Assembly: GCA_965552055.1 (NCBI GenBank) | Contig: CBEVQO010000003.1 | Coordinates: 1-64,000, forward strand | Direction of reading: 5' to 3' | DNA length: 64,000 bases | Source of the DNA: an uncultured bacterium | GTDB taxonomy: Bacteria > Hydrothermota > UBA3073 > NMUJ01 > CBEVQO01 | Position numbers and translations under genes: made by a program | In this document: positions 1 through 56,278 of the stretch, one piece after another | How positions within the stretch are numbered: position 1 is the stretch's first letter | Layout: every line of letters starts with the position of its first letter | The notes under the pieces: model-generated | Databases searched by the model: none | What the model was told of the DNA's origin: nothing | What the model saw: the letters and a program-made list of their open reading frames with translations, nothing else

Positions 1-137
1 TTTTACCTTCAGGCAAATATGTATTCACATGGGACAGGAGTGATAAAAGTGGCAGTGAAGTTTCTCCCGGTGTCTATTTTTATATTTTGAGAATCAATGA
101 CAAATGTGAATCAAAGAAGATAGTGATAGTTAAATAA
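1..137 (+). CDS. 3' end of a secreted protein with T9SS-type/FlgD-Ig C-terminal sorting domain (partial)
   Basis: Frame from position 3 reads LPSGKYVFTWDRSDKSGSEVSPGVYFYILRINDKCESKKIVIVK*, with the typical WD..G..V..GVYF...KKIVI motif; not in the ORF track. Confidence 0.8.
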   Translation, partial: LPSGKYVFTWDRSDKSGSEVSPGVYFYILRINDKCESKKIVIVK

Positions 138-246
138 ATTTTTAATGCGAGCGTAAGCGAGCTAATTACCAATGGGTTGTGAGTCAACACCCCGACTGAA
201 AGGAGGGGTGTGCACGAGGGTGGTGGGGACAGGGAGGCGGGGCTAA
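136..246 (+). repeat. Structured intergenic element, copy 1 (short form)
   Basis: AAATTTTTAAT-GCGAGCGTAAGCGAGC head, GGGTTGTGAGTCAACACCCC...GGGGTGTGCACGAGGG, G-run tail; core differs from the copy at 56168-56278 by about 1 nt. Confidence 0.9.
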
Positions 247-265
247 TAATAATTTTTGATATTAC

Positions 266-292
266 TTGACAGAGATATATTTTTATTAAAAT
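266..292 (+). promoter_or_regulatory. sigma70-like promoter, 15-bp spacer, leaderless start
   Basis: TTGACA(266-271)-N15-TAAAAT(287-292); ATG at 298, no SD. Confidence 0.7.
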
Positions 293-297
293 AATTA

Positions 298-1614
298 ATG
301 AATAAAATTGGAATAAGGCGTGAGGATAAGAATGAGTGGGAAAGAAGAGCACCTTTAACTCCCCATCATATAAAAGAGTTAAAAGAAAAGTATGGGATTG
401 AGTTTGTTGTTCAACCATCCGATAATTATATCCCCAGAAGGATATTTTGTGATGATGAATATAGGAAAGCAGGTGCAGAAGTAAGAGAAGATTTATCGGA
501 TTGTGATGTAATACTTGGTGTAAAAGAGATGCCAGTGAATTTCTTTGAAGAAGGCAAAACTTATATTTTCTTTTCTCATACGATAAAAGGACAGCCACAA
601 AATATGCCGATGTTAAAGCGTATGATAGAATTGAAATGCAATTTGATAGATTATGAAAAGGTTACAGATAGGTCTGGCAAGCGTCTTATTTATTTCAGTT
701 ATCATGCGGGGCTCGCAGGTGCGATAGATACATTGTGGATACTCGGTAAAAGATTTGAGTGGAAAGGTATAAAGACACCATTTTTGAAAATAAAGCAAAC
801 ACTCTGTTATAAGAATTTAAAAGATGCAAAGGAAAATTTGATTAAAGTTGGGGAAGAAATTAAGAAAGGTTTACCTGCTGATGTAGTGCCATTTATTGTG
901 GGCGTCATTGGTAGGGGTCATGTAGCACAGGGTGTAAACGAAATCCTTGAATGTTTTCCTCTCGAAGATGTGTCTCCAGAAGATATTAAAAAGGTTTTTG
1001 TAAATCCAAAGGAAGACAGAATTTACAGAATTAAGTTTTTAAAAGAGCATACGGTTGAATTGAAAGAAGGAGGAGGTTTTAAAGGGTATGATCATTTTAA
1101 TAAAAATCCACATCTTTACAAGACATGCTTTGATAAATATTTGCCTTATCTTACATGTATTTTTAATGCAATTTACTGGGATGAAGGGTATCCCAGGTTG
1201 ATAACGAAAGAGATGTTGAGAAATCTTTTTGAGGGGAGTATCTGGCGTTTGGAGATAATAGGCGATATAACATGCGATATAGGTGGTTCTGTTGAGTGCA
1301 CGGTAAAAGCTACAAATCCATCGCAACCTACTTTTGTTTATCATCCACTCACAGATGAAATAAAAGACGGCTATGAAGGTGAAGGTCTCGTTATTCTTGC
1401 GGTTGATAATTTACCCTGTGAACTACCATTAGAATCTTCTGAATTTTTCAGCAATGCGTTATATCGATTTATACCTGATGTAGCGAAAGCAGATTTTACA
1501 AAATCTTATGAGGAGATAGAGTTACCTTTTGAGGTAAAGAATGCCATGATTTTATGTCATGGTGAATTTACTCCGAATTATGAGTATATGCGGCGCTTTG
1601 TTGAAGATGTGTAG
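298..1614 (+). CDS. Lysine-ketoglutarate reductase / saccharopine dehydrogenase (AlaDh/PNT family, LKR half of AASS)
   Basis: IGIRREDKNEWERRAPLTP, ILGVKE, FFSHTIKGQ, LIDYE, DITCDIGGSVE, AVDNLPCELP motifs. Confidence 0.85.
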   Translation: MNKIGIRREDKNEWERRAPLTPHHIKELKEKYGIEFVVQPSDNYIPRRIFCDDEYRKAGAEVREDLSDCDVILGVKEMPVNFFEEGKTYIFFSHTIKGQPQNMPMLKRMIELKCNLIDYEKVTDRSGKRLIYFSYHAGLAGAIDTLWILGKRFEWKGIKTPFLKIKQTLCYKNLKDAKENLIKVGEEIKKGLPADVVPFIVGVIGRGHVAQGVNEILECFPLEDVSPEDIKKVFVNPKEDRIYRIKFLKEHTVELKEGGGFKGYDHFNKNPHLYKTCFDKYLPYLTCIFNAIYWDEGYPRLITKEMLRNLFEGSIWRLEIIGDITCDIGGSVECTVKATNPSQPTFVYHPLTDEIKDGYEGEGLVILAVDNLPCELPLESSEFFSNALYRFIPDVAKADFTKSYEEIELPFEVKNAMILCHGEFTPNYEYMRRFVEDV

Positions 1615-1626
1615 CTGGAGGGAGAG

Positions 1627-2913
1627 ATGAGCAGGGTTTTGATTTTGGGTGCAGGTATGGTGTCGAAACCGATAGTCAGATATTTGCTTTCTAAAGGTTA
1701 TGAAGTGTGGGTTGCTACTCGTACAGTATCTAAGGCAGAGGCACTGATAGAGGGTCATCCCCGTGGTAAAGCGATAAAATGCCTTGCAGATGATACACAA
1801 AAGTTGAAGGAACTGATAAAGGAATCGGACATAGTTGTAAGTTTATTACCACATGAATATCATGTTGAAGTTGCTAAGATATGCATAGAAGAGAAGAAAA
1901 ATATGGTGACAACATCTTATACTTCTTCTGAATTAGAGTCACTTGACAATCTGGCGAAAGAATCTGGCATTATAATTTTAAATGAAATGGGTTTTGACCC
2001 CGGTATTGACCATATGTTGACGATGAAAATGATAGACGGAATGAAAGAAAAGGGTTTCAAAGTTACAGGTTATTATTCCTATTGTGGTGCATTACCTGCT
2101 CCTGAGTGTGCAAACAATCCGATAAAATACAAATTTTCATGGAGTCCGAGAGGTGCTTTACAGGCATGTAAAAATCCTGCGCGGTATATGCGTAATGGTG
2201 AGATAATAGAAGTGAAAGGGGATGAACTTTTTGAGCATCGCTGGATAATAGATGTAGAAGAAATTGGCAAATTAGAAGCTTATCCCAATCGTGATTCTGT
2301 TAAATATATTGAAAAATATGGCATCCCTGGTGTGAAGAACATTTTAAGAGCCACTTTAAGGTATCCTGGCTGGTGTGAAACTATGGATTTGTTGAATAAA
2401 CTTGGTTTGCTTTCGGAAGAAGAATATGATTTCGGTGAAAAAACATGGTCTAGCTTTACGAAAGAGAGATTGAGGGAACTTCGCATAAACAGGAATCAGA
2501 TAGCGGTAAAGCGTCTCGAATGGCTTTCTTTGTTCAGTGAAGAGAAAATTGGTGGCAGAAAGATTCCACTTGATTTAATTGTTGAAAAATTTCTTTCAAA
2601 AGCCCAATATAAAGAAGGAGAAAGGGACATGTGTGTGCTGAAGATAGAAATTGAATTTGAGAAAAATGGCTCCCAAGAGAAGCATATTGCTACATTTTTG
2701 GAATTTGGAGAGATAGGCAATGAAACTGCTGTTTCCCGTGCAGTATCCCTTCCAGCTGCTGTAGCCGTGGAGCTAATTCTTAAAGGAGAGATAAAATCGA
2801 GAGGCGTAAGGATACCCGTTGATAGGGAAATTTATGAACCTGTATTAAACTCACTTGACAAAATGGGATTTTCGTTTAAATATAAAGTGAGCGCCCGTAG
2901 CTCAACTGGATAG
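1627..2913 (+). CDS. Saccharopine dehydrogenase (glutamate-forming, SDH half of AASS)
   Basis: GAGMV Rossmann, EMGFDPGIDHM, YCGALPAPE, YKFSWSPRG, EAYPNRDS, TLRYPG. Confidence 0.9.
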   Translation: MSRVLILGAGMVSKPIVRYLLSKGYEVWVATRTVSKAEALIEGHPRGKAIKCLADDTQKLKELIKESDIVVSLLPHEYHVEVAKICIEEKKNMVTTSYTSSELESLDNLAKESGIIILNEMGFDPGIDHMLTMKMIDGMKEKGFKVTGYYSYCGALPAPECANNPIKYKFSWSPRGALQACKNPARYMRNGEIIEVKGDELFEHRWIIDVEEIGKLEAYPNRDSVKYIEKYGIPGVKNILRATLRYPGWCETMDLLNKLGLLSEEEYDFGEKTWSSFTKERLRELRINRNQIAVKRLEWLSLFSEEKIGGRKIPLDLIVEKFLSKAQYKEGERDMCVLKIEIEFEKNGSQEKHIATFLEFGEIGNETAVSRAVSLPAAVAVELILKGEIKSRGVRIPVDREIYEPVLNSLDKMGFSFKYKVSARSSTG

Positions 2914-2964
2914 AGCGTCGGACTACGGATCCGAAGGTTGGGGGTTCAAATCCCTCCGGGCGCG
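2891..2964 (+). tRNA. tRNA-Arg(ACG), no encoded CCA
   Basis: GCGCCCG/CGGGCGC acceptor stem, TCGGA-CTACGGA-TCCGA anticodon arm, GGTTCAAATCC T-loop. Confidence 0.95.
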
Positions 2965-2969
2965 TAAAA

Positions 2970-3362
2970 ATGAAATTAAAGGGAATCATATTATCTACTG
3001 AAGGCGATTTCGCAGATGTGAAAATAAATGCCGAAGCATGTAAGAAATGTCCTGGTAATATTTTTTGTGGAAAGGGTGTAAAAATAGTGAGGGCGAAAAA
3101 TAAAATAGGTGCAAAGAAAGGTGATGAGGTTATAATCTATGAACCAGAAAATATTGCGATTTTCATATCGGCGCTTTTGTTTTTGTTTCCTGTTTTTGCT
3201 TTTCTTGCAGGATTTTTGCTCATGCGTATTTTGAAGTTTAAAGAGATTTTCCAATTTTTGACAGGTTTTTCTTTTCTGGGAATTTACATGTTTTTCATAA
3301 CAAGGTTTTCTGAGAAAGTTAAAGGTAAGTTTAATCCAGAGATTGTTGAAATTATTTCTTGA
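2970..3362 (+). CDS. RseC/MucC (SoxR reducing system) family membrane protein
   Basis: ACKKC...C cysteine motif, AKNKIGAKKGDEV, two TM helices, C-terminal PEIVEII. Confidence 0.8.
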   Translation: MKLKGIILSTEGDFADVKINAEACKKCPGNIFCGKGVKIVRAKNKIGAKKGDEVIIYEPENIAIFISALLFLFPVFAFLAGFLLMRILKFKEIFQFLTGFSFLGIYMFFITRFSEKVKGKFNPEIVEIIS

Positions 3363-3401
3363 CAATATGGTAATTTGTTTAAATAAGTGAAAGGAGGTAT
3401 T

Positions 3402-4076
3402 ATGTTTTATCTTTTGTTTTTGTTATTTCAGATGGAGACAGAGCGACCTACGGTAGCTGTTTTTGATTTTGAAGAGATTAGTTGCAGAGAAGGTTTAGGC
3501 AAGGGAGTTGCCGAACTTGTTCTTACTCATTTAGCCCAATCCGGTAAATTTAAAGTGGTCGAAAGGGCTCAATTGCTAAAAGTTTTGAAAGAGCAGAAGA
3601 TGGCGGTCGGTGGTCTTATAGATGAACAGACAGCTGTTGAAATGGGAAAATTACTTGGTGCAAAATATGTTGTGCTTGGTAGTGTATTTAAATCGGGTAT
3701 GATTTATACTTTGAATGCACGCTTTATAAATGTTGAGACAGCAGAAGTTGAGTTTGCAAATTCTGTGACATGTAGAAGCGAATCAGAATTTCCTTATGCT
3801 TCCAAAAAATTAATCTACGGTATGATTGCACCAAAATCCCGTCCTTCTCTTCCAGAGAAGAAAAGACCGATAGAAAAGGTGGAAAAGCCTGAGAAAAAGC
3901 GTCCTCCCAACATTGCTGCGTTTAAAAGAGGATTAGCGGAAGGGTATATTGCGGGCAGGAAAGCAGGGGTTGCGAAAGGCAGGAAAAAGGCATTAAGAGA
4001 GGGTGCACTTACAGGTTGTCTTTTGTGGACTGCTGGTATTTTGCTGATAATAGCATTGGGGGCAGGTGGGTCATGA
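3402..4076 (+). CDS. CsgG/HfaB/FlgO-domain exported protein with Gly-repeat helix and C-terminal TM anchor
   Basis: TVAVFDF...FKVVERAQL...MGKLLGAKYVVLGSV; SD AAGGAGGT places the ATG at 3402. Confidence 0.75.
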   Translation: MFYLLFLLFQMETERPTVAVFDFEEISCREGLGKGVAELVLTHLAQSGKFKVVERAQLLKVLKEQKMAVGGLIDEQTAVEMGKLLGAKYVVLGSVFKSGMIYTLNARFINVETAEVEFANSVTCRSESEFPYASKKLIYGMIAPKSRPSLPEKKRPIEKVEKPEKKRPPNIAAFKRGLAEGYIAGRKAGVAKGRKKALREGALTGCLLWTAGILLIIALGAGGS

Positions 4077-4360
4077 TAGTGTTTTTATTTTTGCTTGCAA
4101 TAAATGAACAGAGACAGCCCAGCTTCCATAAAGATAAAATAGAATTTGCTCAGCGATTGCAACGCCCTGTGCTCCGCAGGATTGCTAAAGAAATCCCGAA
4201 TGACCCGAGAACTGCTTACAGAGCTGGCTATCAAAGGGGCTTCTCAAAAGGTTACAAAGATGGTTTTCGTGCAGGGAGAAGGTCAGCGACATACTGGTTT
4301 GGATGCCTGCTCGGTTTAACATTAGGTCCTGTTGGCTATCTGATAGCGTTATTCTTTTAA
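4073..4360 (+). CDS. Small membrane protein with YxxGYxxG repeats
   Basis: ATGA overlap with upstream stop; hydrophobic N-terminus; AYRAGYQRGFSKGYKDGFRAG; C-terminal TM. Confidence 0.65.
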   Translation: MIVFLFLLAINEQRQPSFHKDKIEFAQRLQRPVLRRIAKEIPNDPRTAYRAGYQRGFSKGYKDGFRAGRRSATYWFGCLLGLTLGPVGYLIALFF

Positions 4361-4371
4361 AGGAGGAAAAA

Positions 4372-6197: not shown

Positions 6198-6201
6198 GTT
6201 C

Positions 6202-6227
6202 CACTGAAAGTGGTTTTTCTTTCAGTG
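6202..6227. terminator. Stem-loop downstream of lnt (possible terminator)
   Basis: CACTGAAAG-N8-CTTTCAGTG perfect 9-bp stem; weak U-tract. Confidence 0.4.
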
Positions 6228-6326
6228 CACTAACTTTTAAAATGGAGAAACCGATGATATTTCCTTTTTTCCGTTCAAACAAAACTTCGAGATAATTCCC
6301 TTCTTTATGTCAAGCTTTTTTAAGTT

Positions 6327-6765
6327 AAATTTTTAATGCGAGGCGTAGCCGAGCAAGGCATTGCCTTGACCATGCTGTGGCTTTTTAAGGCGCTTTGTTC
6401 ATAACAAGTGCGTATTTTTGCTAATAATTTTTAATGCGAGGCGTAGCCGAGCATGTTACATATGGGTTGTGAGCCAACACCCCGAGCGGTTAAAGCGGAA
6501 CTACATTTTGGGAGCAGAGAGGTAGATTTTTAAGGGTAGCGGTGATGAAAGCGGGAGCTGGTTTTAGGTGCGATACTACACTCATTATGGGTAGAGGTTA
6601 TAGAGTGCGGTAGTGCAGTTTTTGATGTGATTGAGGTTTTGGTTGCGAACTTGCTTTATTACGGGTAGGGCATTTTAAAGAGCGGGAGTGCGGTCAAGGT
6701 GGTGCCTTGTCCCGCGAGGGGTGTGCACGAGGGCGGTGGGGACAGGGAGGAGGGGCTAAAAATTT
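6327..6765 (+). repeat. Structured intergenic element, copy 2 (long form with duplicated head)
   Basis: Two GCGAGGCGTAGCCGAGC heads (6338, 6436), roughly 230-nt insert between ACACCCC and GGGGTGT, G-run tail; closely similar to the copy at 13375-13716. Confidence 0.9.
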
Positions 6766-13374: not shown

Positions 13375-13716
13375 AAATTTTTAATGCGAGCGTGAGCGAG
13401 CTAATTACCAATGGGTTGTGGGTCAACACCCCGAGCGGTTAGAGCGGAACCGCATTTTTTGGAAGCAGAGAGGTAGATTTTTAAAGGTAGCAGTGATGAA
13501 AGCGGGAGCTGATTTTAGGTGCGATACTACGCTCATTATGGTGGAGAGGTTATAAAGTGTGGTAAGGCAGTTTTTTGAGGTGATTGAGGTTTTGGTTGCG
13601 AACTTGTTTTATTACGGGTAGGGCATTTTAAAGAGCGGAAGTGCGGTCAAGGCAGTGCCCTGGTAGCGAGGGGTGTGCACGAGGGCGGTGGGGACAGGGA
13701 GGTGGGGCAAAAAATT
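13375..13716 (+). repeat. Structured intergenic element, copy 3 (long form)
   Basis: GCGAGCGTGAGCGAGC head at 13386, insert similar to copy 2, G-run tail. Confidence 0.9.
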
Positions 13717-13753: not shown

Positions 13754-16700
13754 ATGATGATTCTTTGTGTCCTTCTTGCGTTATTTCATGAGGGCTTCGA
13801 GGGAGCTTTCCCGCCTCCGCAATGGGATACCACAAGGACATCCGCTGTTTACTGGCAGAAATCAAGCAGTGGGACACCCTTCCAGGGCTCATATTATGCT
13901 CGTGTGAAAATTACAGATGCTACAAATTCGGGTGAGATAATTTTGATGACAGATACTATTGATATTTCTGATGATGAGCCCGAAACATTAAGATACTGGT
14001 ATAGATTTTCTTATTCTGATTCCTCGTTTGGCGATTCTGATACCATTTATGTAGAAATATCTGTAGATTCGGGTAAGACATGGAATGAACTAACTTTTTA
14101 TAAATTAGGTGATGAGACAAACACATGGACAGGCGAAAAGTTTGATTTGACATCTTACAATGGTGGGAATGTAATTTTGAGATTCAGATTTGTTGATAAA
14201 GCTGGTGCCAGTGCTACTACATCTCGCTATTTCTGGCTTGATTCTGTGTGGATTTATTCAAGGTTGCCAAACAGACCCCCGGAGATAACGATAATAAAAT
14301 ATTTACCAAAGATACCCGATTCTTCCGATAATGTAACTGTAATCGCGAAAATAAAAGACGATTATGATGCTGTAATTTTAAAAGATACTCTTTTCTATTC
14401 GATAGACAGGGGGACAACATGGAAGTGGGTGTATCATGATAGTATAAGAGATAGTATTTATTATTATACGATTCCGAAGCACCCCCGTGATACTTTAGTT
14501 TATTTCTTTATAAGGGCATGGGATGATTCAGGAGCTGCAGGTGTATCTGATACTTTGTTTTACCTTGTCAGGAAATATCCTGAGATTGTGATAAATGAGA
14601 TAATGTATAATCCTTCATCTGAATTAGGTTTAGATGCAGATTTTGAATGGGTTGAGTTATATAATTATGGTGAAGATACTCTTGACCTTAGCAAATGGGA
14701 ATTTACGGATGGCTCTGATAGTTATTTAATACCTGTGGGTATAAAACTTGCACCTAAATCTTTTGTTATACTTGCGAGGAATCCGGATACTCTTTATAAG
14801 ACCGCAGAATATATGGATGATATTGGAGATGGTAATGATACAGTTTTAGGACCTACTGGTGTTAGTTTGGGCAATGCGGGTGATAATGTGATTATAAAAG
14901 ATAGTTTCGGGATAATGATAGATAGCGTCTCGTATGGTGATGCGGCTCCCTGGCCATCGGAGCCGGATGGAGGAGGTCCTTCACTTGAATTAAAATCACC
15001 TTATCTTGATAATTTAAAGCCTGAAAACTGGCAGGCATCATATGAGAAATGGGGGACACTTGGGGATACAAATTCTAAAAACCTTGTACCTGTAATTGAT
15101 AGTGTATGGAGAGAGCCACAAAATCCTTCTTCAATAGATACGACGATAATATTCGCAATCATAAAAGATGATTGGGATACATTACTTAAAGATACATTGT
15201 TTTACAGAATAAATTCAAATGCATGGATTAAAACTTTATCTGATAGCGTAAAAGATACACTATATTTCTATCATATTTTACCGCAAAATGCAGGTGATAC
15301 CGTTTCTTATTTTGTGATAACAAGAGATAGTGAGGGTAAAAAAGCACTATCCGATACTTTTTCATTTATAGTAAGAAAGTCAAATCAGCCTCCGCAGTTT
15401 GTGTGGGTAAAAAGAACCCCTCAATATCCTGATACCACAGATACCGTGATAATCATCGCAAATATAAAAGATGATTACGATACCATTATAGATAGCACTT
15501 TGCTTTATTATAAAATTAATGCAGGTAGCTGGCAAATTACACATGAAGATAGTATGAAAGATAGTTTGCATTTTTATCATATTTTACCTCAATCAATTTT
15601 GAGTGTGGTTAAGTATTTTATAAAAGCTGTAGATGATTCGGGTGCTTTTTCTGTCTCCGATACTTATACTTATGTTGTAATTGCACCTGTTCCACAGATT
15701 GTTATAAATGAGATAATGTATAATCCGTCTGATGAGCAAGGTTCAGATGATTATTTTGAATGGATAGAGTTATACAATGCAACAATAGAAACTGTAAATC
15801 TTAAAAACTGGGAGATAAGTGATGGTGAGGCTTCATACATTTTGCCTGATGTAGAGCTAGCACCGGGGCATTACCTTGTTATCGCAAGATATCAAGATAC
15901 TCTTTATAAAGATAGTACATACTTTGATGACCTTGGTAATGGGGATGATACTGTGATAGGACCCTGGGGGAGCATTGCTCTTTCTGACGAAGATGAAGTT
16001 ATTTTGCGAGATAGCCTTGGACGATTGGTTGACAGTGTTCATTATAGCTATTCATCACCCTGGCCTTCTTCACCGCGAGGAGGGGGTCCCTCACTTGAGT
16101 TAAAGTCGCCTTATCTTGATAATTTAAAGCCCGAAAACTGGCAGGCATCATATGAGAAATGGGGGACACCTGGGGAACAGAATTCAACAGCGCCTCCTTT
16201 GCCCACACTTGTTATAAATGAGATAATGTATAATCCTTCGACAGAACAAGGAACAGATTTGCAATTTGAATGGATAGAAATTTACAATATGACAGCGGAA
16301 ACTGTAAATCTTTTAAATTACAGGATTTATGTGCCGGGTTCCGGTAGTTTTACCTTCCCTGATATAGCGTTCCCTCCTTTTTATTATCTTGTCGTTGCAA
16401 GAGATACTATGGCTTTGAAAAATTGTGCGGAATATCAGGATAATTTGGGTACAGGCGACGATATTTTAACTGGTAATTTTACATTTTCGTTGAGTAATGC
16501 GGGGGCTACTGTGATTCTTTATGATAATTATGACAGAGTTATTGATAGTGTCAGTTATGGTGTATTACTTCCCTGGCCAGTTGAACCGAATGGCTTTGGA
16601 CCTTCTCTTGAACTCAAATATCCTTTCCTTGATAACACCAAACCTGAAAACTGGCAGGCATCTTATGAGAAATGGGGGACACCAGGTGATACAAATTCCA

Positions 16701-17794
16701 CACCGCCGCCAAATTTGCCTCCTGTTATAGATACCGTATGGAGAGAACCACAAGAACCACTAGCAACAGATACGGTGATAATTTTTGCAATTATAAAAGA
16801 TGATTATGATTCAATAATTGATAATGACTCTTTGAGATATAAAATAAATAGTGGAGAATGGGTCAGTGTATATCATGACAGTATGCGTGATAGTTTACAT
16901 TTTTATCATATTCCTCCGGTTTCTGATGGTGATACGGTTTATTATTACATTTGGGCACAGGATGATTCGGGTGCATTCTCAATTTCACTTCCCCAGTTTT
17001 ATATAACACCAGGGCCTCCTCCATTAATTGTTATAAACGAAATAATGTATAACCCGTCGCAAAGTCAGGGTAGTGATGTTTATTTCGAATGGATAGAGCT
17101 CTGGAATTATACGCAGGATACTGTTGATATTACTAACTGGAAGATAACCGATTTTGAGGATGAATATATCTTCCCCACGTTAAAGATGCCACCCGGTCAT
17201 TTTGTTGTGATAGCAAGGTCTCCTGATTCTATTCTTAAGTGCGTTGAATATCAGGATAACTTACTTGATGGCAATGACACAGTGATAGGTCCTTCGGGTA
17301 TTGCTCTTGCAGATAGTGATGAGATTTATCTTTATGACAGGTGGGGCAGAGTCGTCGATAGCGTTATTTATAGTAGCGGTGGTTTATGGCCCTCCAGTCC
17401 AGCGGGCAAAGGTCCATCACTTGAGCTGAAATCCCCTATGCTCGATAATGCAGAACCCGGAAGCTGGAGAGCATCACTGGAAACATACGGCACACCCGGG
17501 GATACAAATTCTGTTTATGCATTATTTGAGAGAAAAATTTTAGGATTTAAGTTCGATATTTTGCCGAATCCAGCAAAAGATATGATTTTTCTCGTTTATT
17601 CTTTGCCATATCCTTCGACGATAAAAGTCAGTATATATGACGCAATAGGAAGATGTGTAAACAAATTTACAATATACAGAAAATCAGGGAAACATAAGGA
17701 GATTTTGGATTTTAATCTACAAAACGGCGTGTATTTTGTAAAAGTTGAGGTTAACAATAAAGAAGTCGTTAAAAAACTTATAATTATAAGATGA
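13754..17794 (+). CDS. Large secreted protein with 4 lamin-tail domains, Ig-like repeats and a T9SS-type CTD
   Basis: Signal-like MMILCVLLALF; 4x (I/L)VINEIMYNPS...EW(I/V)E(L/I)xN...GPSLELK; C-terminal PNPAK...IYDAIGR...GVYFVKV...KKLIIIR. Confidence 0.85.
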   Translation: MMILCVLLALFHEGFEGAFPPPQWDTTRTSAVYWQKSSSGTPFQGSYYARVKITDATNSGEIILMTDTIDISDDEPETLRYWYRFSYSDSSFGDSDTIYVEISVDSGKTWNELTFYKLGDETNTWTGEKFDLTSYNGGNVILRFRFVDKAGASATTSRYFWLDSVWIYSRLPNRPPEITIIKYLPKIPDSSDNVTVIAKIKDDYDAVILKDTLFYSIDRGTTWKWVYHDSIRDSIYYYTIPKHPRDTLVYFFIRAWDDSGAAGVSDTLFYLVRKYPEIVINEIMYNPSSELGLDADFEWVELYNYGEDTLDLSKWEFTDGSDSYLIPVGIKLAPKSFVILARNPDTLYKTAEYMDDIGDGNDTVLGPTGVSLGNAGDNVIIKDSFGIMIDSVSYGDAAPWPSEPDGGGPSLELKSPYLDNLKPENWQASYEKWGTLGDTNSKNLVPVIDSVWREPQNPSSIDTTIIFAIIKDDWDTLLKDTLFYRINSNAWIKTLSDSVKDTLYFYHILPQNAGDTVSYFVITRDSEGKKALSDTFSFIVRKSNQPPQFVWVKRTPQYPDTTDTVIIIANIKDDYDTIIDSTLLYYKINAGSWQITHEDSMKDSLHFYHILPQSILSVVKYFIKAVDDSGAFSVSDTYTYVVIAPVPQIVINEIMYNPSDEQGSDDYFEWIELYNATIETVNLKNWEISDGEASYILPDVELAPGHYLVIARYQDTLYKDSTYFDDLGNGDDTVIGPWGSIALSDEDEVILRDSLGRLVDSVHYSYSSPWPSSPRGGGPSLELKSPYLDNLKPENWQASYEKWGTPGEQNSTAPPLPTLVINEIMYNPSTEQGTDLQFEWIEIYNMTAETVNLLNYRIYVPGSGSFTFPDIAFPPFYYLVVARDTMALKNCAEYQDNLGTGDDILTGNFTFSLSNAGATVILYDNYDRVIDSVSYGVLLPWPVEPNGFGPSLELKYPFLDNTKPENWQASYEKWGTPGDTNSTPPPNLPPVIDTVWREPQEPLATDTVIIFAIIKDDYDSIIDNDSLRYKINSGEWVSVYHDSMRDSLHFYHIPPVSDGDTVYYYIWAQDDSGAFSISLPQFYITPGPPPLIVINEIMYNPSQSQGSDVYFEWIELWNYTQDTVDITNWKITDFEDEYIFPTLKMPPGHFVVIARSPDSILKCVEYQDNLLDGNDTVIGPSGIALADSDEIYLYDRWGRVVDSVIYSSGGLWPSSPAGKGPSLELKSPMLDNAEPGSWRASLETYGTPGDTNSVYALFERKILGFKFDILPNPAKDMIFLVYSLPYPSTIKVSIYDAIGRCVNKFTIYRKSGKHKEILDFNLQNGVYFVKVEVNNKEVVKKLIIIR

Positions 17795-18321: not shown

Positions 18322-19742
18322 ATTTCAACAGAAGGGAAAAATTTTGATATATTTTTTTGATGACGGTAATTCCAGACTTTATAAAATCCGAGATTTATTT
18401 TTGCTGATAAATATTTTGAGAATATCTGTATTCCTGCTGATATTTTTAATGATTTTTGTGTAGTTCCAAGTAAAAAGCCATTTCTTGGAGGCAGTTCGCT
18501 TTCCCATGTGAGATTCGTTTCCCCGTGTCTTACAAATTCAAAATCCAACAACAAATCTGATGAATAATTCAAATGTTTTGTGAAGTTTATTTTTAATTCG
18601 TCGAAATCAGATTTTCTTTTATGTCCCAGGGGATATGAGAGATAAAGATAGTAGTTTGCTTTTATCCAGTGGAAATATGTCCATGCATTTACTCTTGTGT
18701 AATTGATTTTTAGCAGTGAATTTTTTATTAAGGGGTCTGCAATTTTTATACCCATCGAGTATCCCACGGGTCCTGCTTCTTTTATATCTTCAAAAAATGG
18801 ATGTTTGGGGTCGGTAACAAATCCCACATCATCAATTAAGAAGTCGCACCACAATTTTAAATTTTTGAGATAAAGATAAAAGTCAAAATCCCAGTATAAA
18901 TCGTCGTCGTAATGCTTTAAGCCGAGTGCACCCCTGCCATAATGTATGTTATATTCTGCAAGTCGATAGATGGAAAATGGCAAAAAGTAAACCATAGCAG
19001 ATAATGCATCCTGACGAGCAAAAATAATACTTTCATTGGCACTCAAAAATAATCTATCTTTAAAAATTTTAACTTCAAGACGATGAAAAGATAGATATCT
19101 ATTTAAATCATACCTTGTTTCAAATGGATAAGGGTCAAGTGGTGCAAAAATAAGGGAATATCTAAAAAATTTGTGAGAATACGATAATAGAAAGATATCA
19201 AGCGGGAAATCATCTGCTGATAAAATTAAACCCTGTGAGACTTTAAGAGGAGTTCTACCAAATAAAAATCTGAAGGATTTAAAATTCAGGTCTATGTAAG
19301 ACATATATGAATCGATTCCGAGTACTGTATCAACGATAGTATCACCATTAACTACTTTTGGAGGGTAATGCCATGTTTTTGGTGGAAACTCCCTGGATTT
19401 ACCAAACTTCGTTATAAGCATGTAATGTAAATCAAAATAAGGTAAGATATAATAAAGTTCACCTGAAGGGAAAATTCTTTCCAGCGAATCTTTTATGAGT
19501 TTAAATCCCGCACATACTTTTAAATTTTTGTCCGTCTTTATTAAAAATTTCAACCTTTTGATTAAAATTTTTGAGGCTTTGTTTAAATTTTTTGATTCTA
19601 TTTTCGAAAGATTTTTCCTGATAATTCTCTGTGGGAATGGTTGAATAGATGTGAATGTTATAAGATTTATTCCTCTGATTTTTAGTTCGTCAACGAGCTC
19701 CGCATACGGGTTGAAGAAATTTATAAGAAGGATTACAATCAC
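18288..19742 (-). CDS. Outer-membrane protein, capsule assembly Wzi-like
   Basis: Signal-like N-terminus, FGR...GLILS, RYLSFHRLE, FLIDD, EYTRV-like NYTRVN, PLGH. Confidence 0.6.
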   Translation of the reverse strand: MIVILLINFFNPYAELVDELKIRGINLITFTSIQPFPQRIIRKNLSKIESKNLNKASKILIKRLKFLIKTDKNLKVCAGFKLIKDSLERIFPSGELYYILPYFDLHYMLITKFGKSREFPPKTWHYPPKVVNGDTIVDTVLGIDSYMSYIDLNFKSFRFLFGRTPLKVSQGLILSADDFPLDIFLLSYSHKFFRYSLIFAPLDPYPFETRYDLNRYLSFHRLEVKIFKDRLFLSANESIIFARQDALSAMVYFLPFSIYRLAEYNIHYGRGALGLKHYDDDLYWDFDFYLYLKNLKLWCDFLIDDVGFVTDPKHPFFEDIKEAGPVGYSMGIKIADPLIKNSLLKINYTRVNAWTYFHWIKANYYLYLSYPLGHKRKSDFDELKINFTKHLNYSSDLLLDFEFVRHGETNLTWESELPPRNGFLLGTTQKSLKISAGIQIFSKYLSAKINLGFYKVWNYRHQKNISKFFPSVEIYLSTYFSMTE

Positions 19743-24066: not shown

Positions 24067-24245
24067 AAATTTTTAATGCGAGCGTGAGCGAGCCCATTAC
24101 ATAATGGGTTGATATGTCAGCCCATTACGGGTTTTTGGGTTACTTGGGTGTTTACGCTTTATCTTCTGATTGCGTTTAAAGAAGGGGTATTAGTGGGCTG
24201 ACTTAATCGGGAAGGTGGGGACAGCGGAGGCGGGGCTAAAAATTT
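24067..24245 (+). repeat. Structured intergenic element, copy 4 (divergent middle)
   Basis: AAATTTTTAATGCGAGCGTGAGCGAGC head; GTCAGCCCATTA...TAGTGGGCTGAC stem; GGTGGGGACAGCGGAGGCGGGGCTAAAAATTT tail. Confidence 0.85.
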
Positions 24246-47351: not shown

Positions 47352-47356
47352 CCTCT

Positions 47357-47383: not shown

Positions 47384-50289
47384 GCTTTTTTCAAAAATTT
47401 TAAAAAATTCTCTGGAGACAAACTTAATTCTACAAATTCTTCAACTTTCTCAATCCTTATCCTCTCATCAAATACATTTTTTAAAAATTTTTTGTCAATT
47501 TTGCCTTTAAACTTTAATCTTACCTTTCTTTCTCCGATTTCTGCTTTTATTATTCTAAATTTTTCGCAGTAAAGTGCTATTTCTTTTGCGAGTAATAAAT
47601 TTCTGGCTTCAACAGGTGGCTCACCAAATCTATCTTTTAGTTCTTTCACAAATTCATAAAATTTATCAACATCCTCTATTCCTGCAAGTCGCTTATACAG
47701 GGCAATTTTGCGATTTGGGTCAACATAATAATCAGGGAAAAAGGCATCCCTATCTATTTTTACTTCGCATCTTATTTTTTCTTCTTTCTTTTCGCCTTTT
47801 AATTCTTTGATTGTATCTTCAAGCAATTTCATATAAAGATTGTATCCAATCATATTTACAAAGCCATGTTGCTCTTTGCCAAGCACATTACCTGCTCCTC
47901 TCATCTCAAGGTCTTTCATAGCAAGTTTAAATCCTGCACCAAGTTCTGCGAAACTAACAATAGCTGCTATCCTTTTCTTTGCTTTATCCGTAATTTTACG
48001 GGGAATTATAAGATAGCAATATGCCTGACGATGAGACCTGCCAACTCTTCCTCTTAGCTGATGCAAATCAGCCAGCCCAAATTTATCTGCTCTATTTATT
48101 ATTATGGTGTTGGCATTGGGTACATCTATCCCTGTTCCCACAATCGCAGTCGAAACAAGTACATCAATTTCTCCTTTCATAAATCTTTCCATTATTTTTT
48201 CGAGAATTCTTGAGGGTAACTTTGCGTGTGCTACTTCTATTCTTACATCTGGCAATAATTTTTGTAAAACCTCTGCAATGTTATAGATTGATGTTATTCT
48301 ATTGTGAATGAAATAGACCTGACCCCCTCTCTCAATTTCCTTCATTATTATATTTTTGATAAGCTCATTATCCCATTTTATTACCTGTGTTATTACTGCT
48401 TTCCTGCCGGGTGGAGGCGTCTCAATCACAGACAGGTCTCTAATCCCTGTAAGTGCCATATACAGTGTGCGGGGAATGGGTGTTGCTGTGAGAGAAAGAG
48501 TATCAACATTTACTTTCATCTGCCTTATCTTTTCTTTATGCCTTACTCCAAATTTATGCTCATCATCAATTATCAACAATCCCAAATCTTTAAATTTTAC
48601 ATCGGGAGATAATAATCTGTGAGTGCCTATTACAATATCAATTGTGCCATCAGAAAGACCTTTTAAAATTTCTTTTTCTTCTTTTTTACTCGTAAATCTC
48701 GATAACATTCTTATTTCAACTGGAAAATCTTTTAACCTTTCTTTAAAATTCAAGTAATGTTGCTCTGCAAGGATAGTTGTTGGACACAAAAAGCATACCT
48801 GTTTGAAATTCATTACGCATTTAAAAGCTGCACGGAGAGCGAGTTCTGTCTTGCCAAAACCAACATCACCACAGACAACCCTATCCATGGGAAAATCACT
48901 TTCCATATCTCTTTTTATGTCAGAAAGGGCTTTTAACTGGTCTTCTGTTTCTTCATACGGAAAACTCAGTTCAAAAATTTTTTGCTCCGGGGTATCAGGC
49001 GAGAATTTAAATCCTTTTTCAATTTTCCTTTTTGCATACAAAATAAGTAACTCTTTTAACATTTTTTCGAGTGCAGTTTTTACTTTCTTTTTCTTCAATT
49101 CCCAATCATTTGAACTGAGACGTGATAATTTTGGCTCACCGCCATCAAGATTTTCGTATTTATCAACGAGATAAAGATTTTCAACGGGGACATAAACCTT
49201 TCCGTCTTCATATTCAAGCTCTATGCAATCATAAACTTTGCCTTTGCATTCAATTTGCTTTATCCCTTTATACCTTCCAATTCCATAATCCTGATGCACA
49301 CAATATTCGCCTTCGGATAGGGAATGTAATAGTTCTTTTGATACTCTTATTTTTTCAAATCTTTTTCTCAAATCTTCTTTTTTACCGAATATATCTTCTT
49401 CTGTGAATACTGCGAGTTTTATATCATCTGCTACAAAACCTGTTTTCGCTGGTAGAATCAAAATTTCTGCATCCATTATCAATTCAGAGATTGACCTTGC
49501 AGTATGAAAATTTTTACATAAAATGATTTTTTTATAATCGCGGTAGCAGGGAAGTGCTTCTTTAAAAATTTTGTAATTCCCATAAAAAGAACTCCTTACA
49601 TTCATGTCAAATCCATCTCCAAAATAAAGGTCATAATTTAAATTCGGGATATTATCGGAGATTAAAAAGCCATTAATTTTTTCAACATCTGTGAATTCTT
49701 CAAATTTTAATGGATAAATTTTGATTTCATCAATTTTTCTTATGGAAGTTTGGGTTTCTACATCGAATTCTCTTATTTCTTCGATTTTATCACCGAAAAA
49801 TTCAATCCTCACAGGATTTTTCGCCAAAATAGGGAAGATGTCAATTATTCCGCCTCTAACAGCATATTCGCCCGGTTCTTCAACAGTTCCAACTCTTTTA
49901 TATCCAAAATCTTCAAAAATTTTTAAAATTTTTTCAAAATTTGTTAAAATTTTTGAATTTAATGTTAAAATTTTTGATTTTAATGTTGAAAAATTTAAGA
50001 TTTTTGTTAAATTTTTCAATGCAAAGATTCCTTCTTTTTGTAGTGCTATTGAGAATTGTAGTGTGTTTGTGTAATCGTTGTCTTTGAGTGTGTAAGCGTT
50101 TAGTAGATTTTGTGTTTCGCAGATTAATTCTTCATTTTCTGTTATCAAAATTATTTTTTTGTGGGTTTGTTTGAATTTGTAGAGTATGAGTATTTTAAGT
50201 AGAGGAGGTATTTCTTTTATTTTCTTTTGTTTTAGTGCATCATTAAATTTTTTCCATTTTTCAACTATTTTAAGTAATTCAGTCATCAT
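47377..50289 (-). CDS. mfd: Transcription-repair coupling factor
   Basis: RGGIIDIF, HQDYGIG CarD/TRCF RID, CGDVGFGKT, DDEH, TATPIPRTL, QLRGRVGR, DLEMRGAG. Confidence 0.95.
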   Translation of the reverse strand: MMTELLKIVEKWKKFNDALKQKKIKEIPPLLKILILYKFKQTHKKIILITENEELICETQNLLNAYTLKDNDYTNTLQFSIALQKEGIFALKNLTKILNFSTLKSKILTLNSKILTNFEKILKIFEDFGYKRVGTVEEPGEYAVRGGIIDIFPILAKNPVRIEFFGDKIEEIREFDVETQTSIRKIDEIKIYPLKFEEFTDVEKINGFLISDNIPNLNYDLYFGDGFDMNVRSSFYGNYKIFKEALPCYRDYKKIILCKNFHTARSISELIMDAEILILPAKTGFVADDIKLAVFTEEDIFGKKEDLRKRFEKIRVSKELLHSLSEGEYCVHQDYGIGRYKGIKQIECKGKVYDCIELEYEDGKVYVPVENLYLVDKYENLDGGEPKLSRLSSNDWELKKKKVKTALEKMLKELLILYAKRKIEKGFKFSPDTPEQKIFELSFPYEETEDQLKALSDIKRDMESDFPMDRVVCGDVGFGKTELALRAAFKCVMNFKQVCFLCPTTILAEQHYLNFKERLKDFPVEIRMLSRFTSKKEEKEILKGLSDGTIDIVIGTHRLLSPDVKFKDLGLLIIDDEHKFGVRHKEKIRQMKVNVDTLSLTATPIPRTLYMALTGIRDLSVIETPPPGRKAVITQVIKWDNELIKNIIMKEIERGGQVYFIHNRITSIYNIAEVLQKLLPDVRIEVAHAKLPSRILEKIMERFMKGEIDVLVSTAIVGTGIDVPNANTIIINRADKFGLADLHQLRGRVGRSHRQAYCYLIIPRKITDKAKKRIAAIVSFAELGAGFKLAMKDLEMRGAGNVLGKEQHGFVNMIGYNLYMKLLEDTIKELKGEKKEEKIRCEVKIDRDAFFPDYYVDPNRKIALYKRLAGIEDVDKFYEFVKELKDRFGEPPVEARNLLLAKEIALYCEKFRIIKAEIGERKVRLKFKGKIDKKFLKNVFDERIRIEKVEEFVELSLSPENFLKFLKKAC

Positions 50290-50384
50290 AATTTATTTTC
50301 TAAATTCTGGGGTTGTCAAGCTATAAGGATATTAGGAGATTTTGTTTAATGTAGGTATCTGAAATTATTTGTTTTAAAACAAAA

Positions 50385-53300: not shown

Positions 53301-54983
53301 GCTTTCAATGATCTCGTAAGGGTCTGCTTGTTTAAGTCCTAATCTCTTGAGAAATTCTAAAATTTTATCTCTTTCTTCTTTATCTTGCTTTGAAACAATA
53401 TCTATGATTGCCTTTTCAATTACTCTGAGCTCATCTTCAAAGCCATATACTGATTTTCTCTCCAGCGGGAAGAATACAGTGCCTTTATTTATAGAAGTAA
53501 GTTCTCCATTCTCCAATTTTATAATCTCCAGATTCTTTAATCGTTCTAATTGCTCGTCAGATAGCTTTTTCTTGCTAAGATAACTAAATAACTTTGCAAA
53601 CCATTCTTTATTCTGGTTTTCGATCCATTCCTTATTCTCCAAACACTTAATTAGGTCATTAATTGAAAAATTTTTAACTCCCAGTTTTTGAAGAACTTGC
53701 TTTTTAACTTTTATTTTATCCGATATGTATTCTTTTCCAAAAAATTTCTGGAGATCTTCATTGGTTACTATTTCTTTTATTTCATCATCACCAGTTAAAA
53801 CCTCTGAAGGTTTCTTCCACTTGTTTGTTTTTGTCAAAATACATGCTTCTTTCTTGAGTTCTTTATATATTTCTTCTACTACCGGTGAAAAGAAATCGTC
53901 TTTTATTTCTTTTTTGAGGGGAAGATAATTGTAAAAGCCGTATTTTAAATTTTCATCATTTTTAAATTCTCTAACAGCATCTAAGAACACTTTTATGATA
54001 GAACCTCTAAGCCATTCGTTCCATTTATTGTCTTTGATAATATCTTCACGAGTTATTGGTAGAAGAAAATCGGCTTGGATGATAAATTTAAATCCATACT
54101 CACGAACTGGAAGATATGCAAAGACAAATTGCTCATTAGAAGTATCGGGAGAATAATCTTCTTTTAAGGGAAATGCCAAAATAATCTCTGTTTCACTAAC
54201 ATCTCTTCGCCTTTCTTCATCCATATCCTGTGGAACCTTAAATAACTTTTTAATTACTTTCCAATAGCTTTTTTTTCCATTGTAAATAACCTCGACTATT
54301 CCATTTTTCTCATGCAGTTCCATCCTTTTAACTTTTTTACCTTTCTCCACAATTTCAATTACTTTCAACTTTTTAAGAAATAGCAAAAGCGATGGATGAA
54401 TTTCATCAATATACTTGCTTATCTTGTTTCTTATTTCAGGTTTAAGATATAGAACAATATTTGTCTGCGCTGGATCAACAAAATCAGGAATTTCATCAAT
54501 CCATTCAGGGATTATCATCGTTACAGGATTGCTTTCATCGTAGTTGAAACCAAATTGGAAACCGTTTGAATAAATCTGCACCCTATTTGCGATCATAAAA
54601 ACAGATTTAAATCCAATACCCTTTTCACCGATATAACCCAACGCTTTCGTTTTTGTTGTTTCACCTATACCACACAATGCCCAAACATTTTTCTCTTCAA
54701 ATCCTTTTTCATTGTTTTGAATTACCAACCAATCAGAGCTTATTATAAACCTAATTTTGGGACGAATATTTTCTTCATATTTGTTATCCTCTGCATTCTG
54801 GATTAATTCAAAAACAAAATGGGGATTTCTTGTGTGAATTTCTTTAGCAAGTTTAGAGGCATTTTTCAAAATTCTTTCTTTATCTTTAAGTGCAGCTCTT
54901 TGCGCTTCTGTTAAATCTTTAGTATCAAGCCCGATTCCAAATCTTATTTTTCTTATCTTCTCAATGACTTTTTTCTTGTTCAT
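50385..54983 (-). CDS. Sacsin/NO VEIN-like HATPase fused to C-terminal DUF3883 (PD-(D/E)xK) nuclease domain
   Basis: FELIQNAED, IGEKGIGFKSVF, FIIQADF; C-terminal GRWGEE...YDI...FIEVKST. Confidence 0.85.
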   Translation of the reverse strand: MNKKKVIEKIRKIRFGIGLDTKDLTEAQRAALKDKERILKNASKLAKEIHTRNPHFVFELIQNAEDNKYEENIRPKIRFIISSDWLVIQNNEKGFEEKNVWALCGIGETTKTKALGYIGEKGIGFKSVFMIANRVQIYSNGFQFGFNYDESNPVTMIIPEWIDEIPDFVDPAQTNIVLYLKPEIRNKISKYIDEIHPSLLLFLKKLKVIEIVEKGKKVKRMELHEKNGIVEVIYNGKKSYWKVIKKLFKVPQDMDEERRRDVSETEIILAFPLKEDYSPDTSNEQFVFAYLPVREYGFKFIIQADFLLPITREDIIKDNKWNEWLRGSIIKVFLDAVREFKNDENLKYGFYNYLPLKKEIKDDFFSPVVEEIYKELKKEACILTKTNKWKKPSEVLTGDDEIKEIVTNEDLQKFFGKEYISDKIKVKKQVLQKLGVKNFSINDLIKCLENKEWIENQNKEWFAKLFSYLSKKKLSDEQLERLKNLEIIKLENGELTSINKGTVFFPLERKSVYGFEDELRVIEKAIIDIVSKQDKEERDKILEFLKRLGLKQADPYEIIESHILPVYESKGWKQKDPRTLIGYVKYIKDNIDKYERESDRKLNANKASRKTKEDPLKRLRESLLIRINNEEDKEWYDSPENVYLPKSYGNENDLETLFEGIDVSFVHFCYLEQDIKRIDNEISELKSKLQEKSKKWKKKHRKEVRKIEKQIEELEKKKSKKVEEWKKFLLKIGVNDIPRVKYYEGYISSNDKYPTTEEKEYSTWGHKVKDWRLSKEFDELLEKLDFKKAEILLRILDKYWNSKYSNYLKMDYRWFYYYERHKTLSSSFIRDLKEKLKIPTAQNALAKPSEVFLDKPEIREVLGNTVPYLAVKIENEDFIRALGINTQANVENVLNYLKALIERKSEDKKKFEKLYKFLDEHFEEDPVKIKDAFREYPLIFVPGTNNKYYRADEVLWKDVSKIFGENRAYLEKHYPKLKKFFLEKLEIREKPIPKDYADVLCSISKKSDVSSEDEKIIIRIYEELNRNLNPDKIENPISEEDWWNDFIEKSIFLINKGKFWSNDGNIFINDNNELYELFKDEKDIGFLWLPENYNPDKIKFFIKACNLNYLSESIEIVPLVEKTKLSKDDKRTKLIQDVIPYVLRYLYWREYAEYEKLKGNGTLKKIGAIEVYVTDNLKVKYSIKVNEWTEISREAERKCVYHKDKNCIYMKNNAGIYDIAVEFSKVFGEIKGLDDFIMNIMSNVSSAEDIMKAKKIRQLPKSEEEILKRVSKRVKKEKGEVEVTKEETKEVESRIAAEEKGKIEVFKKAKAEEGEELAETSIDTRVKKEWTPEISPEKAPIRIEEYKYTHEGGKETKITDKESKLSDKKSATRSHGDWERSIEVLSKKAKEDIGRWGEEYAFRCIKDEMTRKYPDASLLNTEQGFKLEKDGRVIAEVVWLNKNGESGQHYDIKITENEDEIFIEVKSTKEFEKTWFEVSKDQWRLMKEKGNKFYIYRVYGAGTKDAKLKKIKNPAKLWKEGHINAYPICIEI

Positions 54984-55204
54984 ACTCAAATTTGTTCAGA
55001 TATGTTCTCAAATGAAGAATACGTGTAAACTATTCGCATACACCCTGATTGGATATTGTTCTTATTTTTATCCTTATATTCATCTTCTTTTAAAATACTA
55101 TTAAGTGAGTTAGACCTTAAAGTTTGCATCATAATTATATAATCAAAAATAAGGGGTGTCAAGAGGAAATTTATTATGAGCGGGTGCGTTATACTACATT
55201 TTGA

Positions 55205-55231
55205 TTGACATTCTTCCGTTATGGTTATAAT
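55205..55231 (+). promoter_or_regulatory. sigma70-like promoter, 15-bp spacer
   Basis: TTGACA-N15-TATAAT; in-frame ATG at 55238. Confidence 0.75.
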
Positions 55232-55237
55232 AATTTG

Positions 55238-55663
55238 ATGAGGAAAGATTTTAAAAGACCGTCTTCACCTGCTGAAGCGATTGAGATGTCAAAGAAGTAT
55301 TTTAATAATGCAAAAGATATTTTAAGAAATGTCAGAATAGAATACGATATTTATACAGATGAGAAGCCTGTACGTGAGGCATGTGCTATGGGATATTTAT
55401 CTGCGTTATTTGCCATTGAGGCATTTGCACTGATGAAAGGCTGTAAAGAAAGCGAATTACCGACTTCTTACGATGGACACTGGGAATGGTTATCAAAAGC
55501 ACCCCATGATGGCAAATTGAAAGCATCTTTTAGAGTTGTTTATGAAAATTTGCATGTTTTTGGCTATTACCGGGGCGGTGTAAATGTTGACATGATAAAA
55601 GCTGGCTTCAGGAACGCCAAAAGAATAATAGAAACCTTTGAGAAATTAATTAAGAGAGATTAA
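55238..55663 (+). CDS. DUF5618-like (HEPN-like helical) protein
   Basis: KYFNNAKDIL...YTDEKPVREAC..GYL...YENLHVFGYY recalled as the DUF5618 pattern. Confidence 0.6.
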   Translation: MRKDFKRPSSPAEAIEMSKKYFNNAKDILRNVRIEYDIYTDEKPVREACAMGYLSALFAIEAFALMKGCKESELPTSYDGHWEWLSKAPHDGKLKASFRVVYENLHVFGYYRGGVNVDMIKAGFRNAKRIIETFEKLIKRD

Positions 55664-55668
55664 GTCCA

Positions 55669-55975
55669 GGGTTGTGAGCCAACACCCCGGGCGTTAGAGC
55701 GGAATCACATTTTAAAGGGCGTTTTGGACTTTTGGGCTGATGAAGGTTTAGAAGCGTAATGATGGGTTTGGTTGGGAATCTGGCTTATTACGGGGAGTGC
55801 GTTTTAGGAAGCTGTAATGGTTTTGGAAGTAGTTGAGGGTTGGGGGCGATACCACACTTATACGGGTAAAGGATTTCAGGGAGTGGCGGTGTGGTTTTCG
55901 ATGGTCGAGAGGTTTTGGTTTGGGAATTTGGCTTTATTACCAGAGAGTGATTAAAATAGCCCTGGCAGTGTCAAA
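55669..55975 (+). repeat. Structured intergenic element, copy 5 (headless, degenerate, about 3 internal subunits)
   Basis: GGGTTGTGAGCCAACACCCCG then G/T-rich units ending (T)TATTACGGG similar to copies 2 and 3. Confidence 0.75.
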
Positions 55976-56029
55976 GTAGTGCAATAAAAAATTTTAACAA
56001 CTCTATTAAAATTTTTAAAATTCGTATTA

Positions 56030-56160
56030 AAATTTTTAATGCTCGCTTTGTCACATATGGGTATTTTTGTCGTACTCGAACGGTAAGAGAAACCGCATTT
56101 TGTGGAGTGCTTGCTAATGAGGTAGGGAGGGTAGCTTAGATGTATCGGGCAATTCAAAGC
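56030..56160 (+). repeat. Degenerate remnant of the same element
   Basis: AAATTTTTAATGC...CACATATGGG...CGAACGGTAAGAG..AACCGCATTTT matches the order of motifs in copies 2 and 3. Confidence 0.55.
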
Positions 56161-56167
56161 GGATAAA

Positions 56168-56278
56168 AAATTTTTATTACGAGCGAAGCGAGTGCATTAC
56201 CAATGGGTTGTGAGTCAACACCCCGACTGAAAGGAGGGGTGTGCACGAGGGCGGTGGGGACAGGGAGGCGGGGCAAAT
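56168..56278 (+). repeat. Structured intergenic element, copy 6 (short form)
   Basis: ACGAGCGAAGCGAGT head; core nearly identical to copy 1. Confidence 0.9.

Follow-up and report, generated by a model that had tools for sequence, protein, structure and literature searches.

A short hairpin repeat with one-sided flank duplication in the genome of an uncultured Hydrothermota bacterium

What are the GC-rich islands that recur between the genes of an otherwise AT-rich stretch of DNA from an uncultured bacterium of the Hydrothermota? The stretch, referred to here as the window, comprises 64,000 nucleotides (nt), positions 1 to 64,000 of contig CBEVQO010000003.1 (assembly GCA_965552055.1), and an original prediction made from its letters had proposed a family of structured, co-oriented, non-coding elements. 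Analysis of the study genome, G000 (2.23 Mb, 15 contigs, 97% complete; C1, C2 and so on are its contigs, and L numbers are locus labels), shows that the family is real and lineage-specific, a short non-coding repeat of which about 70 copies fill the intergenic gaps. It occurs as three linked subtypes and a 65-nt form, carries hairpins on its G-rich strand, is associated with duplication of the flank on its head side, and has its modules replaced in place between strains. The explanation developed below, with about an even chance of being correct, is a non-autonomous mobile element resembling repetitive extragenic palindromic (REP) sequences and bacterial interspersed mosaic elements (BIMEs), which would act as folded single-stranded DNA (ssDNA) and be copied from a fixed tail in the one-ended manner of IS91, capturing DNA on the head side.

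Read along the G-rich strand, the element begins with an A/T end (AAATTTTTA), followed by the head hairpin and then by TTAC and GGG. An optional stem-loop comes next, whose insert can reach ~350 nt; the G-tract tail then ends in GGGGC and gives way to a second A/T end (TAAWAATT). In each of the three subtypes the 5' linker and the tail stay linked across the insert, and in the minimal form of ~65 nt the core is wholly absent. The inserts are G/T-rich and made of related modules, with joints at CGAG (by eye). The right flank TAAWAAT is conserved and may be part of the element.

All the stretches named in the original prediction lie at the positions given for them in the window, in which the tail motif and the head motif each occur five times, always on the + strand (expected 0.00 in 100 shuffles each). 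The elements are indeed GC-rich islands (GC 0.42-0.55, against 0.35 for the window), and copies 1 and 6 differ, as had been noticed, at one of 78 core bases. The stretch at 55669-55975, however, has neither head nor tail, and 55669-56278 is one composite of an old copy, a 21-nt A/T block, a decayed remnant and the intact copy 6. The predicted lack of a credible open reading frame is borne out by the 17 long copies, in which the longest stop-free frames reach 40-125 residues and no common frame is apparent by eye. The copies and associated features of the window are the following.

1..143, + strand: flank on the head side of copy 1, corresponding to the 3' end of a secreted-protein gene; its duplicate, together with the element head, lies at G000:C4:68102-68248.
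136..252, + strand: copy 1, of subtype I and lacking an insert; an A/T end precedes the head hairpin at 147-162, and the core stem-loop, G-tract tail (to 243) and a further A/T end follow it.
6327..6765, + strand: copy 2, of subtype I, with two heads, at 6338 and 6436, that enclose an inverted insert module; tail end at 6756.
13375..13716, + strand: copy 3, subtype I with insert, amid divergent promoters; tail end at 13708.
24067..24245, + strand: copy 4, subtype III (GTCAGCCCA/TGGGCTGAC stem, ACAGCGG tail); tail end at 24236.
55110..55172, - strand: copied promoter and first codons of an integron integrase, 84% identical over 63 nt to the 5' end of the integrase gene on C9.
55167..55195, + strand: possible decayed head beside the integrase-promoter copy, seen by eye only, with no profile match above control.
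55669..55975, + strand: old copy without head or tail (core 5' arm and insert), the beginning of the composite array.
55985..56037, + strand: A/T-rich block of 21-nt repeats, found ahead of heads at several loci.
56030..56165, + strand: decayed subtype II remnant.
56168..56281, + strand: copy 6, insert-free and of subtype I; its tail end at 56274 and the stop codon of a convergent Clp ATPase gene are 4 nt apart.

The insert of copy 2 is ~230 nt long and G/T-rich. A/T-rich 21-nt repeats with the period and core of the A/T block found before heads also occur within reading frames, at window positions 19511-19595 and 49914-50019. A likeness of this block to a XerD arm was dropped, dif spacing being absent.

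How widely is the repeat distributed? In G000, 70 tail-bearing copies are recognized, 66 with head and tail and 4 with a tail only; profiles place 72 tails and 82 heads above a reversed-genome control. The predicted co-orientation is confined to short range: the window copies are all on the + strand and neighbours share a strand in 39/60 cases (p=0.027, a mild local clustering), against a genome-wide split of 40 on the + and 30 on the - strand. Beyond G000, which is the sole genome of its family in the comparison set (close kin lie outside the sample), BLASTN found the repeat in 0/40 genomes of relatives and the head pattern occurred in 0/250 genomes of the phylum. A covariance model run against the genomes of 60 relatives recovered no full element and three weak partial matches (E 0.01-0.03). 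Viral scans gave 0, 0 and 0 matches to tail and core patterns and 4 head-like matches without the rest of the element, and BLAST of phage and plasmid collections gave no match. The single match of a species-genome scan, in a GC-rich actinobacterium, was taken as chance. Among 13 metagenome matches, 12 belong to this lineage and 1 is unrelated; the best-matching metagenome run for G000 DNA is from a hydrothermal vent, and homologues of one G000 gene include the label WOR-3 among their best named matches. Many intergenic copies, mosaic arrays and a narrow host range are traits of REP/BIME sequences that the repeat displays.

The hairpins indicate the form in which the repeat may act. Stem and loop vary in both the head and the core hairpin (loops GTAA, GTA, GAA, GTGA, GGA, GATA, GTTA and GAAA) and the tandem GA/GA is constant, with compensatory changes in the stems. 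Across 12 aligned copies 98.7% of cells are paired and 4/13 pairs are changed on both sides, values that sequence kinship inflates. Hairpins clamped in this way are nearly exclusive to the family: of 84 in the genome, 79 belong to elements and sit on their G-rich strand, with none on the opposite one. Standard folding energies gave no signal against shuffles (z -0.65 to +0.39), so the word "structured" in the original prediction rests on covariation. The G strand folds lower in 68/70 copies, a result that G-T wobble alone would also give. GNA triloops and sheared GA pairs, which standard energy models do not score, are typical of DNA hairpins. Judged from sequence, the covarying GA/GA hairpins with their GNA or GNNA loops point to ssDNA rather than RNA. 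The family had been called unrecognised: an Rfam search of the window returned three tRNAs only, the elements there and at four further loci had no Rfam match, and no published description of the family was found in the literature, yet its hairpin grammar is that of the class-3 hairpins adjacent to TnpA(Y1) genes. In the accessible part of their source, these are described as a stem, tandem GA/GA, a 2-bp upper stem and a GTAA, GTGA, GTTA or GTCA loop (Quentin et al., 2018; PMC6006769); Figure 7 and supplement parts 1-6 of that paper may hold closer hairpins.

The surroundings of the copies bear on two further explanations. Of the 70 copies, 26 lie between divergent, 38 between co-directional and 5 between convergent genes, with 1 at a contig end; these contexts track free gaps roughly, three of the assignments resting on spurious frames. 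Most copies adjoin a -35 box or a stop codon, as might be expected of a domesticated cis-acting element or non-coding RNA (a promoter insulator, terminator or mRNA element), and a 94%-identical strain retains one copy that differs by 4 changes, of which three fall where family logos or loops vary. Such a role is nevertheless very unlikely, given that all four gene contexts are occupied roughly in step with free gaps and that the family combines DNA-type triloops and polar flank duplication with the lack of an Rfam match; the copies also stand in both orientations relative to transcription, and the RNA branch of the original prediction thus finds no support. That copies sit next to promoters and stop codons is likely a matter of what selection will allow in so compact a genome. 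At C1:455397, C2:185453 and C8:38116, three frames enter the element head, stop in its hairpin and end in the residues RA.

At the opposite end of the element, 12 genes owe the completion of their TAG stop codon to the final C of the tail; genes ending in NF or NY number 17 in the genome, and 8 of these are among the 12. Stop-completing ends are known from elements of the ERIC (enterobacterial repetitive intergenic consensus) type. Together with the A/T ends AAATTTTTA and TAAWAATT, this would suit a classical miniature inverted-repeat transposable element (MITE) that has inverted A/T ends of 9 bp, depends on a DDE transposase and duplicates a TA. These ends are short, however (8-9 A/T bases, the left one often decayed), the interior is asymmetric, no DDE_3 (IS630-type) gene was found in G000, and copying of a single flank is foreign to MITEs. 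No copy-specific target duplication was seen among the copies, in a test that an invariant TA duplication would escape. The MITE branch of the original prediction is therefore weak, and is the least likely of the explanations weighed here.

A further indication of mechanism comes from the flanks. In a comparison of 500-nt flanks, with element modules masked beforehand, the head-side flank matched another copy's same-side flank in 15/69 cases and the tail-side flank in 0/70, against 0-4/65 for random gene starts. When repeats anywhere in the genome are considered, the values are 17/70 for head-side flanks, 2/70 for tail-side flanks and 64/864 for element-free gaps. Copy 1 of the window is one example: its head-side flank shares 140/143 bases with that of the copy adjoining PurF, these are the only two such places in the genome, and the tail-side flanks are unrelated. 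A secreted beta-helix gene of 2-3 kb provides another, in that its four closest paralogues each have an element on the head side; at these four loci gene, promoter and element remnant are shared up to the element, and nothing is shared beyond the tail. The promoter of the integron integrase is present in 6 copies, of which 4 adjoin a head and 2 may adjoin decayed heads (by eye only). The captured head-side DNA includes genes of 3 kb as well as integron-integrase promoters and the flank of copy 1 in the window. Apart from the one at the integron itself, the copies of the integrase promoter, which include the first codons, precede other genes at five places, window 55110-55172 (-), C2:13710, C5:118028, C7:29461 and C10:26352, and are likely integron relics.

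Do the copies come and go? Twelve proteins with tail-completed stops were looked up, and for 6 of them another cluster member covers the C-terminus. RfbD (C1:455342) ends in DFL-NNF here and in DFL-QHIGAF in a 98%-identical member, and RibE (C2:13363) ends in KYL-YKYNY here and in KYL-QRMK in a 96%-identical member; the remaining 4 agree with their cluster members save for one residue. Near-identical alleles thus have an alternative C-terminus, in place of the one that derives from the element, in 2/6 informative tail-adjoining genes versus 0/13 other neighbours (one fragment set aside). These two alleles, known from protein alone, would fit insertion or loss of an element alike. PurF (C4:68313) ends in NY here, and its homologues extend 2 to 12 residues beyond the aligned point. 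Remodelling in place is seen between C7:90848 and L023, from another strain, which have both flanks and the tail end in common and different inner modules; in run X2, a short variant likely occupies the site of copy 2, changed in the same manner. Gains or losses of ~530 bp, specific to a strain, occur near the head side of elements (L023 versus C7:90157-90690; L021 versus C1:289722). A 1.18-kb block beside a tRNA gene, absent from G000 (L026:4247-5425), contains one of the same-lineage metagenome matches; by eye, it comprises a nucleotidyltransferase-like gene, a short element and an aspartyl-protease-like gene. A joint between 55150 and 56173 was considered as an empty site and rejected, as it fits a paralogous locus.

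These observations suggest the following scheme. An HUH-type (Y1/Y2) strand-transfer enzyme, supplied in trans and now lost or unassembled, would have recognised the hairpins and cut near the tail and at a variable distance past the head. Transfer of the single strand would have been anchored at the tail, carrying variable lengths of head-side DNA along, and new copies may have inserted into A/T-rich gaps or at the ends of genes; others may have settled on older copies and replaced the right part of these. The branch of the original prediction that favoured a non-autonomous, REP-like ssDNA element is supported by the 70 dispersed copies, the GA-clamped hairpins of one strand, the allele differences at two genes and the polarity of flank duplication.

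Several results weigh against this scheme. Searches of G000 found no match to the general Pfam model Y1_Tnp at E<=10 (genome 97% complete), none to Y2_Tnp, one match below cut-off to Zn_Tnp_IS91 and no HUH-motif candidate. The 17 head-side cases form ~9 groups and hence are not independent, and tail-side sharing does occur in 4 pairs over 21-38 nt. Only 6/16 flank-sharing pairs are of the same subtype (baseline 25%), and therefore copying of whole units alone is insufficient. No two copies are identical, the best pair reaching 96.4%, and no replication-strand bias is detectable (30 vs 21, p=0.26; 19 copies ambiguous). Empty sites, which the original prediction had proposed to look for, were not found at the DNA level, and read joints skipping a whole element are absent among the joints listed, which were 15 of 43 in one set and all 11 in another. 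In 11/12 same-lineage metagenome loci the tail is at the same site as in G000, in a scan that selects element-filled sites. The 5' CnGA foot of the class-3 hairpins, as given in the accessible part of PMC6006769, is also absent, the head being preceded by TTTA(A/T)T.

The main rival explanation, possible if rather doubtful, involves no dedicated transposase. The G-tract tail, as a G-quadruplex (G4), and the hairpins would trigger polar host recombination, in which two copies pair by homology at their tails and are joined illegitimately on the head side; such events would copy head-side DNA and remodel elements in place. Gene conversion initiated by a G4 operates at pilE in Neisseria. In G000, 46/67 canonical G4 motifs are element tails, every copy has 4-6 G3 tracts within its last 60 nt, and the positions of the tail G-tracts are near invariant, with variable loops. 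The different interiors of L023 and C7:90848, the truncation of old copies at varied points before new ones, the mixed subtypes of flank-sharing pairs and the lack of a mobiliser in G000 all fit recombination as well. It leaves unexplained, however, the arrival at new sites and the covariation of the head hairpin; the tail G4 is a predicted structure, and the canonical G3 pattern is found in 45/70 tails only.

Could an enzyme still resident in the genome move the repeat? Further searches of G000 found no RVT_1 match and, for GIY-YIG, one 581-aa protein that is UvrC-like by eye, with no small Ssn-type nuclease; genes between close copy pairs included no mobiliser candidate by eye. Other genomes of the class carry Y1 genes in 18/21 cases, and the 25 Y1 loci of relatives had no such hairpin and have left no remnant in G000. 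No HUH gene was found within 1.5 kb of 79 viral loci with the class-3 motif, and plasmids had none. Mosaic tandem arrays of class-3 motif repeats are present on viral contigs L057, L088, L095 and L099, with no HUH gene nearby.

Two resident recombinases can be named. Phage_integrase matches are confined to two Xer-like genes and a gapped integron integrase, and a search with transposase motifs yielded an IS110 gene only. The integron (L012; C9:28375-35970) has its integrase in line with the cassettes, among which is an AccI-type restriction gene, and the IS110-family transposase gene (L037; C6:126424-127452) is intact, has short derivatives on C1, and has an end fragment adjoining an element at C5:37533. 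The repeat might be moved by the integrase, with folded single strands as substrate, or by the enzyme of the IS110 family. The integron is bracketed by an element tail and by an element head fused to half an attC at the array end, the three local attC-like sites have similar GA/GNA hairpins, and the two element ends, if joined, would give an A/T palindrome of 12 bp that resembles a circle junction. This is nonetheless unlikely: the integrase lacks ~27 profile positions of its catalytic domain, 6 homologous integrases have no element upstream and the repeat has no attC-type end boxes (both by eye), and the IS110 element, whose ends are unrelated to the repeat, shares no sequence with it and has derivatives of its own. 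Elsewhere in the window, positions 14586-17511 encode a 1373-aa protein with four lamin-tail domain repeats and a secretion C-terminal domain.

What the repeat offers is a set of countable traces, namely a fixed end, one-sided duplication of up to ~3 kb, in-place remodelling and rewritten protein C-termini. The finding covers one lineage, with no enzyme found and no DNA-level empty site. If the proposed scheme is true, a tiny non-coding element would be an engine of gene duplication and promoter shuffling in a compact genome, and a little-studied hairpin fold, class 3, would be tied to one-ended capture of the IS91 type; the 65-nt minimal form is a ready biochemical substrate. More tentatively, the family may represent the bacterial equivalent of non-autonomous Helitrons, with a minimal unit of 65 nt, made of one GA-clamped hairpin and a G-quadruplex tail, that homes into new gaps and into its own old copies and whose one-sided duplication takes in whole genes, promoters and integrons; the driver would be host recombination alone or a single-strand enzyme not yet described. 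The spread of REP-like repeats is, in the part of PMC8266576 available, still described as poorly understood.

How does the repeat compare with known systems? In the parts of the cited sources at hand, E. coli REP/BIME sequences, of the class 2 TnpA-REP type, have the same mosaic intergenic habit (PMC3333891), and REP repeats can persist after loss of the transposase gene (PMC3333891; PMC8266576). Both kinds of repeat are intergenic, species-specific and mosaic, with a required stem mismatch. By contrast, the REP foot (GTAG/GTGG) with its hairpin is absent from the repeat, whose tail GTGG has no hairpin after it; the repeat is a single polar unit rather than inverted pairs, is not enriched in convergent gaps (5/70), and a Y1 gene flanked by repeats, as in REP/BIME, was not found in G000. 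IS91 and IS801 are known to capture DNA in a one-ended manner (PMC13181058; PMC3189936). On the portions of these papers available, they resemble the repeat in that their two ends differ, one of them is fixed and DNA beyond the other is captured, and the target is not duplicated. The CGAG module joints recall the IS91 ter cut site CTCG, a likeness of 4 bases only. The repeat differs in having no Y2 transposase, no sequence likeness, a 65-nt minimal unit and a G-rich folded strand, and in its accessible part PMC3189936 ascribes most IS801 fragments to recombination. With integron attC sites the repeat shares one strand built for folding, and the local attC sites have GA/GNA hairpins; unlike them it is dispersed, forms no cassette arrays and has no attC end (R) boxes by eye. 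The closest published fold, as far as the available part of PMC6006769 goes, is that of the class-3 TnpA(Y1) hairpins: the repeat has the same build of stem, GA/GA, 2 bp and GTNA, and is likewise of high copy number and, as at class-3 motif loci, arranged in mosaic tandem arrays. It differs from them in also having triloops, a core stem-loop, inserts and a G-tract tail, and in that no Y1 gene was found. The repeat works like these systems, but because a defining feature of each is missing it is not filed as a member of any of them; the polarity of its flank duplication is what is new in this REP-like family.

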